This document shows, piece by piece, positions 16,581 to 17,813 of a stretch of DNA of 17,813 nucleotides; position 1 is the first letter of the stretch; each line of letters opens with the position of its first letter. Both the position numbers and the translations under genes were made by a program. The notes under the pieces were generated by a model. The model saw nothing but the letters and a program-made list of their open reading frames with translations, was not told the origin of the DNA and did no database searches. The stretch is from a virus (taxonomy: Duplodnaviria; Heunggongvirae; Uroviricota; Caudoviricetes): the IMG/VR virus record IMGVR_UViG_2531839664_000031; one strand, given 5' to 3'.

Positions 16581-16634
16581 TATGTCTAAATTACCAACAG
16601 GTGTCGAGATTAGAGGTACATTCGCATCTGGTTC

Positions 16635-17813
16635 ATGTTTCGAGGAAAACGATGTCGGGAAACATTAAAAGGCTGGGAGATTACAAACAGTAATATTAAA
16701 AAGGCCGGAAATTTAAGAGCGCTGATAGTTCATGAAATAAACTCCGGTGAATTTGAGTATTTAAGACGTTTTCCCCAGTCCAGCACTGGGGCAAAAATGG
16801 TGACAACGAGAGTCATAAAAACGTTCGGAGAGCTTTGTGATATCTGGACAAAAATTAAAGAGACAGAGTTAACAACAAACACAATGAAGAAAACAAAATC
16901 ACAATTAAAAACACTCAGAATAATAATTTGTGAAAGTACCCCGATATCACATATTCGTTATAGCGATATCTTAAACTACCGGAATGAACTGCTGCATGGA
17001 GAAACGCTTTACCTGGATAATCCAAGATCCAACAAAAAAGGAAGAACCGTGCGCACAGTTGATAACTATATCGCCCTGCTCTGTTCGCTGTTGCGTTTTG
17101 CGTATCAGTCGGGATTTATATCAACCAAACCATTTGAAGGAGTAAAAAAATTACAGCGAAACAGAATAAAGCCTGATCCGTTATCTAAAACAGAATTCAA
17201 TGCATTAATGGAAAGTGAAAAAGGACAGAGCCAGAACTTGTGGAAATTTGCCGTTTACTCAGGACTTCGTCACGGGGAACTGGCAGCTCTGGCGTGGGAG
17301 GATGTGGATCTCGAAAAGGGAATAGTGAATGTCAGAAGAAACCTGACGATACTTGATATGTTCGGTCCCCCAAAAACAAATGCCGGGATCCGGACAGTAA
17401 CACTACTGCAGCCTGCTCTTGAAGCACTGAAGGAGCAATACAAACTGACCGGGCATCATCGCAAAAGCGAAATCACCTTTTACCATCGGGAGTACGGCAG
17501 AACCGAAAAGCAAAAACTGCATTTTGTTTTCATGCCCAGGGTGTGTAACGGAAAACAAAAACCTTATTACTCGGTAAGCAGTTTGGGGGCAAGGTGGAAT
17601 GCAGCAGTAAAACGTGCTGGTATTCGCCGTCGTAATCCGTACCATACGCGGCATACTTTTGCCTGCTGGCTGTTGACGGCAGGAGCGAACCCGGCATTTA
17701 TAGCCAGCCAAATGGGGCATGAAACTGCGCAGATGGTGTATGAAATTTACGGTATGTGGATTGATGACATGAACGACGAACAGATAGCCATGTTGAATGC
17801 GCGGTTATCGTAG
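16635..17813 (+). CDS. intR: Tyrosine recombinase / prophage integrase IntR, likely disrupted at the 5' end
   Basis: 392-aa ORF with a tyrosine-recombinase C-terminal domain (..HGELAALAWEDVD.., ..YHTRHTFACWLLTAGANPAFIASQMGHET..). An ATG at 16582, adjacent to the xisR stop, opens a different frame that stops at 16669-16671. The conserved N-terminal strand YIRIWFMFRGKRCRE is in the long frame but lies behind a TAG at 16611-16613. ATG 16635 has no ribosome-binding site. Confidence 0.8.
   Translation: MFRGKRCRETLKGWEITNSNIKKAGNLRALIVHEINSGEFEYLRRFPQSSTGAKMVTTRVIKTFGELCDIWTKIKETELTTNTMKKTKSQLKTLRIIICESTPISHIRYSDILNYRNELLHGETLYLDNPRSNKKGRTVRTVDNYIALLCSLLRFAYQSGFISTKPFEGVKKLQRNRIKPDPLSKTEFNALMESEKGQSQNLWKFAVYSGLRHGELAALAWEDVDLEKGIVNVRRNLTILDMFGPPKTNAGIRTVTLLQPALEALKEQYKLTGHHRKSEITFYHREYGRTEKQKLHFVFMPRVCNGKQKPYYSVSSLGARWNAAVKRAGIRRRNPYHTRHTFACWLLTAGANPAFIASQMGHETAQMVYEIYGMWIDDMNDEQIAMLNARLS

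Follow-up and report, generated by a model that had tools for sequence, protein, structure and literature searches.

A four-base deletion at the 5' end of intR in the Rac-like prophage of Escherichia coli O121:H19 strain 5.0959, a probable scar of imprecise IS629 excision

The Rac prophage of E. coli K-12 occupies ttcA and encodes IntR, a tyrosine recombinase of the lambda Int family, together with the excisionase XisR, in the gene order recE-recT-ralR-rcbA-xisR-intR-ttcA. Excision of K-12 Rac needs XisR, which acts with the integrase at the attachment sites in ttcA (PMC4632033). Resident prophages with inactivated integrases are already well documented, as are the IS-associated microdeletions of STEC that accompany IEE-linked IS loss. 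In strains of O121:H19, iee is located on an SpLE1-like element, and IEE-mediated loss of IS3-family elements occurs in these strains during culture as well as among natural sublineages (PMC9397093). One study describes the flanking deletions produced by IEE-dependent excision, which range from a few nucleotides to more than 40 kb, and attributes microhomology-mediated end joining to IEE itself (PMC9943667). For ISApl1, which is lost by the same route, a second report places the joints at microhomologies of 2-4 bp and gives lost lengths within a few base pairs of the IS length (bioRxiv 10.1101/2023.06.07.543989).

Here, we report on a Rac-like prophage with the same gene order as K-12 Rac in E. 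coli O121:H19 strain 5.0959, which was sequenced at JCVI and is represented by the AEZX entry (PMC3359367). The window, by which we mean the whole stretch of 17,813 nucleotides that was analysed, comprises positions 1-17813 of contig AEZX02000021.1 (assembly GCA_000194395.2). Unlike K-12 Rac, the window carries a 4-bp deletion in codons 12-14 of intR, so that a 411-aa protein is impossible. Comparison with other O121:H19 genomes, in particular with strain RM8352, leads us to propose that an IS629-type element once occupied this site and that the deletion is what its loss left behind.

The prophage and its source contig

The assembly of strain 5.0959 is a 2011-era draft, and our comparison covers 27.8 kb of its genome. 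From 3319 to 17813 the window departs from O121 strain 2014C-3599 at two places only, a SNP at 11106 and the 4-nt deletion in intR. Past the window, a further 10 kb of the contig matches eight complete O121 genomes at 100% identity; this region downstream of intR is the same in all eight and carries no sublineage signal. Over the ~24 kb of unique DNA, the intR deletion is the sole private difference from relatives, and all 19 other prophage genes (4416-16580) are intact.

intR lies between xisR and the ttcA attachment site, whose core is located in the same contig 75 nt beyond the end of the window (L009, 11255). As in K-12 Rac, this core falls in the 5' end of ttcA. Of the two copies of the 26-bp sequence, that on the uspF side is exact and that on the ttcA side carries one mismatch, specific to O121 in the comparison with K-12 (AAGAAAGgACAA...). 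With both att cores in place, a functional integrase would have found its substrate. The O121:H19 prophage at ttcA (L017, 1-30300; L004, strain 2014C-3599) is ~50 kb long and contains terminase, portal, capsid and tail genes of lambdoid morphogenesis, lysis genes and the effector gene nleC. In the window, a gene for a 'beta family protein' (4416-5513, + strand) and one for an 'sce7726 family protein' (5473-6051, - strand) converge with overlapping 3' ends and adjoin a class I SAM methyltransferase gene (6374-6847); the names are taken from identical annotated DNA. This convergent pair may be prophage defence or accessory cargo.

The first part of the window, positions 1-3892, is plasmid-type DNA. 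It consists of the 3' part of an IS629-type IS3-family element (1-982, + strand), which shares 99.8% identity with the intR-interrupting copy of RM8352, followed by a remnant of IS66 tnpC (983-2634) and an IS3 (2636-3893). Positions 1-3892 are 99.9% identical to pRM8352, and positions 900-2720 are 100% identical to nine O121 virulence plasmids. The IS3 is a hybrid that joins this DNA to the chromosomal prophage: its SNPs are of plasmid type up to 3318 and of chromosome type at 3766. Such a join reflects either an assembly chimera in the draft or a genuine cointegrate mediated by IS3. Two 1-nt homopolymer gaps fall in the same part of the contig. One, at position 14 within IS629, reduces TTTT to TTT relative to the plasmid and chromosomal copies of RM8352; the other, at 3237 within IS3, reduces AA to A relative to the RM8352 copies and frameshifts IS3 orfB. 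The gaps are either 454-type errors or real defects. The copy at 1-982 shows that this type of IS is present in strain 5.0959.

Reading frames at the 5' end of intR

The xisR gene (16365-16580, + strand) is intact. It encodes an excisionase of 71 aa whose translation equals K-12 XisR, identical DNA is annotated in RefSeq, and the product matches the Pfam family DUF1233 of putative excisionases (E=6e-21). A single base separates its stop codon, TGA at 16578-16580, from the intR start codon at 16582 (TGATATG), and this closeness suggests translational coupling. The first-pass annotation of this DNA, made from the letters alone, had placed the ATG immediately after the xisR stop, which is indeed its position. 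The frame that it opens is a residual ORF of 28 aa (16582-16668, + strand) reading MSKLPTGVEIRGTFASGSCFEENDVGKH; it consists of native codons 1-12 (MSKLPTGVEIRG) and sixteen out-of-frame codons, and ends with TAA at 16666-16668, three bases before the stop given in the first-pass annotation (16669-16671). Owing to this stop, intR lacks an uninterrupted reading frame from its conserved start beside xisR.

The body of the integrase, from Y14 to S411, continues in the -1 frame relative to ATG 16582 (16617-17813, + strand), beginning at 16617, carrying YIRIWFMFRGKRCRE and ending with TAG at 17811-17813. Translation bears out the earlier statement that this second frame is closed upstream of the junction by TAG at 16611-16613 (+ strand). 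The first ATG of the body frame is at 16635 (M20), and the 392 codons from there to the window end specify a sequence identical to residues 20-411 of K-12 IntR.

The two frames meet at a deletion junction, GGTAC (16616-16619, + strand), where 4 nt found in all relatives are missing; it is also the site of the IS629-type insertion in RM8352. Codons 12-14 of intR read GGTAGATACATT in K-12 MG1655 and in O121 strain 2014C-4423, and GGTACATT in the window. When the window is aligned to these two sequences, a single 4-nt gap is the sole difference in 145 columns. The missing bases can be written as TAGA, AGAT or GATA; their placement is ambiguous because the site has the form TA-GA-TA, with a TA on either flank. 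The distance between ATG 16582 and ATG 16635 is 53 nt, as against 57 nt in K-12. The first-pass annotation had arrived at the same shortfall of 4 nt from an IntR length of 411 aa, which is the length of the K-12 protein, and had proposed a frameshift at the 5' end of intR, to be checked by alignment to K-12 intR. The alignment confirms the frameshift as a true 4-nt deletion, a direct difference from the reference sequences in which chance plays no part, relative to K-12, to at least eight O121:H19 genomes and to every other genome examined.

A native start at ATG 16635 is ruled out. The arm-binding domain Arm-DNA-bind_2 (PF12167) occupies residues 5-69 of the 411-aa IntR and matches model positions 1-65 of 65, and RefSeq annotates a 411-aa IntR in the genomes inspected; the native start is that at 16582. 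From M20, the domain matches model positions 17-65 only, whereas positions 1-16 are encoded in the other frame with stops between. The body frame therefore retains a truncated arm-binding domain, along with a SAM-like core-binding domain and the catalytic Phage_integrase domain (PF00589, E=6e-23, residues 186-372 of the 392-aa frame). A sequence search of the PDB returned catalytic-domain relatives only, and no solved arm domain was close enough for strand mapping.

Judged from its sequence, intR has become a pseudogene in strain 5.0959 through the 4-bp deletion in codons 12-14. Ribosomes that start at ATG 16582 would stop after 28 codons, and the M20 frame has no ribosome-binding site, so that no full-length IntR is expected. 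That the gene could still function, either by a programmed -1 frameshift or through a working truncated integrase from ATG 16635, seems to us most improbable. The intR frame would be regained by a -1 shift at any point in 16614-16665, and neither the catalytic nor the core-binding domain is damaged, both being identical to those of K-12 IntR. However, the zero frame contains no slippery heptamer of the form X XXY YYZ between 16582 and 16666, and the frameshift is absent from all 1,841 relatives; programmed recoding is ruled out on these two grounds. Against a truncated product stand the position of ATG 16635 inside the 28-codon ORF, the loss of a quarter of the arm-binding domain from M20 and, as had been remarked at the outset, the missing ribosome-binding site: no Shine-Dalgarno sequence lies at a useful distance from this ATG, the sole GAGG being 18 nt upstream.

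In lambda Int, the arm-binding domain is required for arm-dependent recombination between attL and attR and for cooperation with Xis. From this general knowledge of lambda-type integrases and from the work on Rac excision (PMC4632033), we infer that no integrase would be able to assemble on attL and attR with XisR, and that the prophage would thus be unable to excise or to re-integrate by itself; the first-pass suggestion that it is locked in place is reasonable on this basis. In principle, a different integrase of the same cell could act on the prophage in trans. We know of none with the same specificity.

Distribution and origin of the deletion

Of 5,426 complete E. coli genomes, 1,841 carry the surrounding 80-nt stretch; none of these 1,841 has the deletion, and each aligns at 80 of 84 positions or worse. 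Exact-pattern scans for the deletion joint gave no match in metagenome contigs or in GTDB representative genomes, and the IS629-intR junction of RM8352 gave none in metagenome contigs by the same type of scan. The allele is thus private to one strain, 5.0959. A 392-aa product is misleading as a marker for it, for among the 10 places shown with such a product only AEZX02000021.1 has the deletion. Four of the places (L005, L007, L008 and L010) have intact DNA in which M20 is merely called as the start, and the remaining ones carry different lesions.

These other lesions lie at the xisR/intR boundary, around locus position 9930-10010, in a sample of assemblies that was selected for lesions upstream of M20. 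An IS1 is inserted at about codon 9 of intR in two assemblies (L011 and L014), and IS1 insertions within the first 20 codons are also seen in H17-H20. Another assembly (L006) has an 11-nt duplication, TTCGCATCTGG, in the same 20 codons, and one (L012) has a nonsense mutation at codon 13 (AGA to TGA). In the last (L013), an extra A is found at the end of xisR.

A lesion at precisely the position of the deletion occurs in O121:H19 strain RM8352. Its intR reads GGTAGA, followed by a 1,310-bp IS629/IS1203-type element and then by GATACATT, so that the element sits exactly at the bases missing in the window. We name the element from its 1,310-bp length, from the RefSeq 'IS1203 family' labels on similar copies and from what we take to be the termini of IS629. 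The IS-intR junction is present in one of the 5,426 genomes, that of RM8352. Apart from the IS and the deletion site, the RM8352 prophage is the same as that of the window. Among the 252 genomes with the segment, the intergenic G at 11106 is shared with the window by RM8352 and the unrelated baboon isolate A30 only; the remaining O121 genomes carry A. RM8352 is a member of sublineage L1.1, and no IS is listed in its iee (PMC9397093). RefSeq annotates an intR ORF of 410 aa in RM8352 (L003, 16765-17997; WP_283956086.1), which starts within the right-hand end of the inserted element and thus has a hybrid N-terminus (..KHSPGNPGRFRYIRIWF); it bears no pseudogene flag.

The RM8352 state cannot be derived from the deleted state. 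Consequently, either an insertion was followed by a loss or two independent events struck the same 4 bp. We regard the first course as probable, with the deletion being the scar of an imprecise, IEE-type excision of IS629. An IS629-type IS3-family element would have inserted at the intR site in a common ancestor with RM8352, which would still carry this ancestral insertion. In the lineage of 5.0959, the element would later have been lost by imprecise, transposase- and IEE-dependent excision, an event that would have taken away the IS, the two copies of the target duplication and a further 2 bases and sealed the ends at a TA microhomology of 2 bp. Such a loss would amount to 1,316 bp, compared with 1,312-1,314 bp for a precise excision, and would leave a net -4 frameshift scar.

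Several observations are consistent with this course of events. The same IS lies at the same site in a close relative, RM8352. The GA that is duplicated there falls within the deleted bases, and the deletion joint shows a 2-bp TA microhomology. The implied loss of 1,316 bp is near the 1,310-bp length of the IS plus a 2-4 bp duplication. The link between RM8352 and 5.0959 is made by one shared SNP and the positional coincidence; strains intermediate between the two were not found. For iee, we rely on the description of the O121:H19 lineage (PMC9397093).

The main rival is replication slippage between the TA dinucleotides of TAGATA, with no IS involved; the insertion in RM8352 would then be a coincidence or point to a shared hot spot. 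The deleted unit is indeed flanked by a 2-bp direct repeat, and the same 40 nt have received other independent lesions (the 11-nt duplication, the nonsense codon and IS1), albeit in a sample selected upstream of M20. Nevertheless, the sole lineage-specific IS insertion and the sole private indel in ~24 kb overlap to the base, for which the chance is about 8 in 24,000, i.e. a few in 10,000. Moreover, 5.0959 and RM8352 share the derived G at 11106, and IS loss driven by IEE is on record for O121:H19 (PMC9397093). We therefore consider slippage rather unlikely. Its functional outcome would be equal, since it yields the same pseudogene.

Alternatively, the gap could be a sequencing or assembly artefact, in which case the real strain would have an intact intR or an IS629 in intR and the gap would stem from consensus calling. 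The draft status of the assembly, the two 1-nt homopolymer gaps at 14 and 3237 and the plasmid-chromosome join within IS3 speak for an artefact. On the other hand, the missing bases are outside any homopolymer, and the unique DNA is otherwise free of errors over ~24 kb. The contig is broken inside another IS629 copy, at window position 1, and an IS629 in intR would have ended it likewise. Nor does any overlap logic convert GGTAGA, the IS and GATACATT into GGTACATT, the intact form being GGTAGATAC. An artefact is possible, though unlikely.

Relation to described systems

The allele is a case of ordinary prophage decay and no new kind of system. Taking insertion and loss together, we lean towards a 'hit-and-run' history, in which an IS629-type element entered intR, was removed imprecisely by IEE and transposase, and so would have left a ~50-kb prophage carrying nleC permanently grounded. 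If this is true, the locus offers a field example of IEE-driven IS loss that fixes frameshifts and aids the domestication of STEC prophages, besides its part in gene reactivation. RM8352, with the IS, and 5.0959, with the scar, would form a natural pair for imprecise IEE-dependent loss of IS629. The finding has little reach past strain 5.0959, where it accounts for the expected failure of the Rac-like prophage to excise; it is relevant to prophage induction or typing with this strain.

Compared with Rac of K-12, a 23-kb remnant, the O121:H19 prophage is ~50 kb long and has full lambdoid morphogenesis genes and nleC. Other inactivations of Rac-type intR, by IS1, an IS629-type element, an 11-nt duplication or a nonsense codon, all lie in the first 20 codons, as does the lesion of 5.0959; the latter differs from them in being a clean 4-bp deletion and in occurring in one strain only. 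With respect to IEE-dependent IS loss in O121:H19, the lineage is the same, and the same type of IS is present at this very site in the sister strain RM8352. The small deletion beside the site and the joint at a 2-bp microhomology that are seen here agree with the published descriptions of IEE-type excision (PMC9943667; bioRxiv 10.1101/2023.06.07.543989). There are two differences from the natural cases. The first is the outcome: in the published natural case of IEE, that of IS600 in lacZ, excision restores the gene, whereas here it would have been imprecise and would have left a frameshift. The second is the route to the event, which in the present case is reconstructed from the comparison of two strains.
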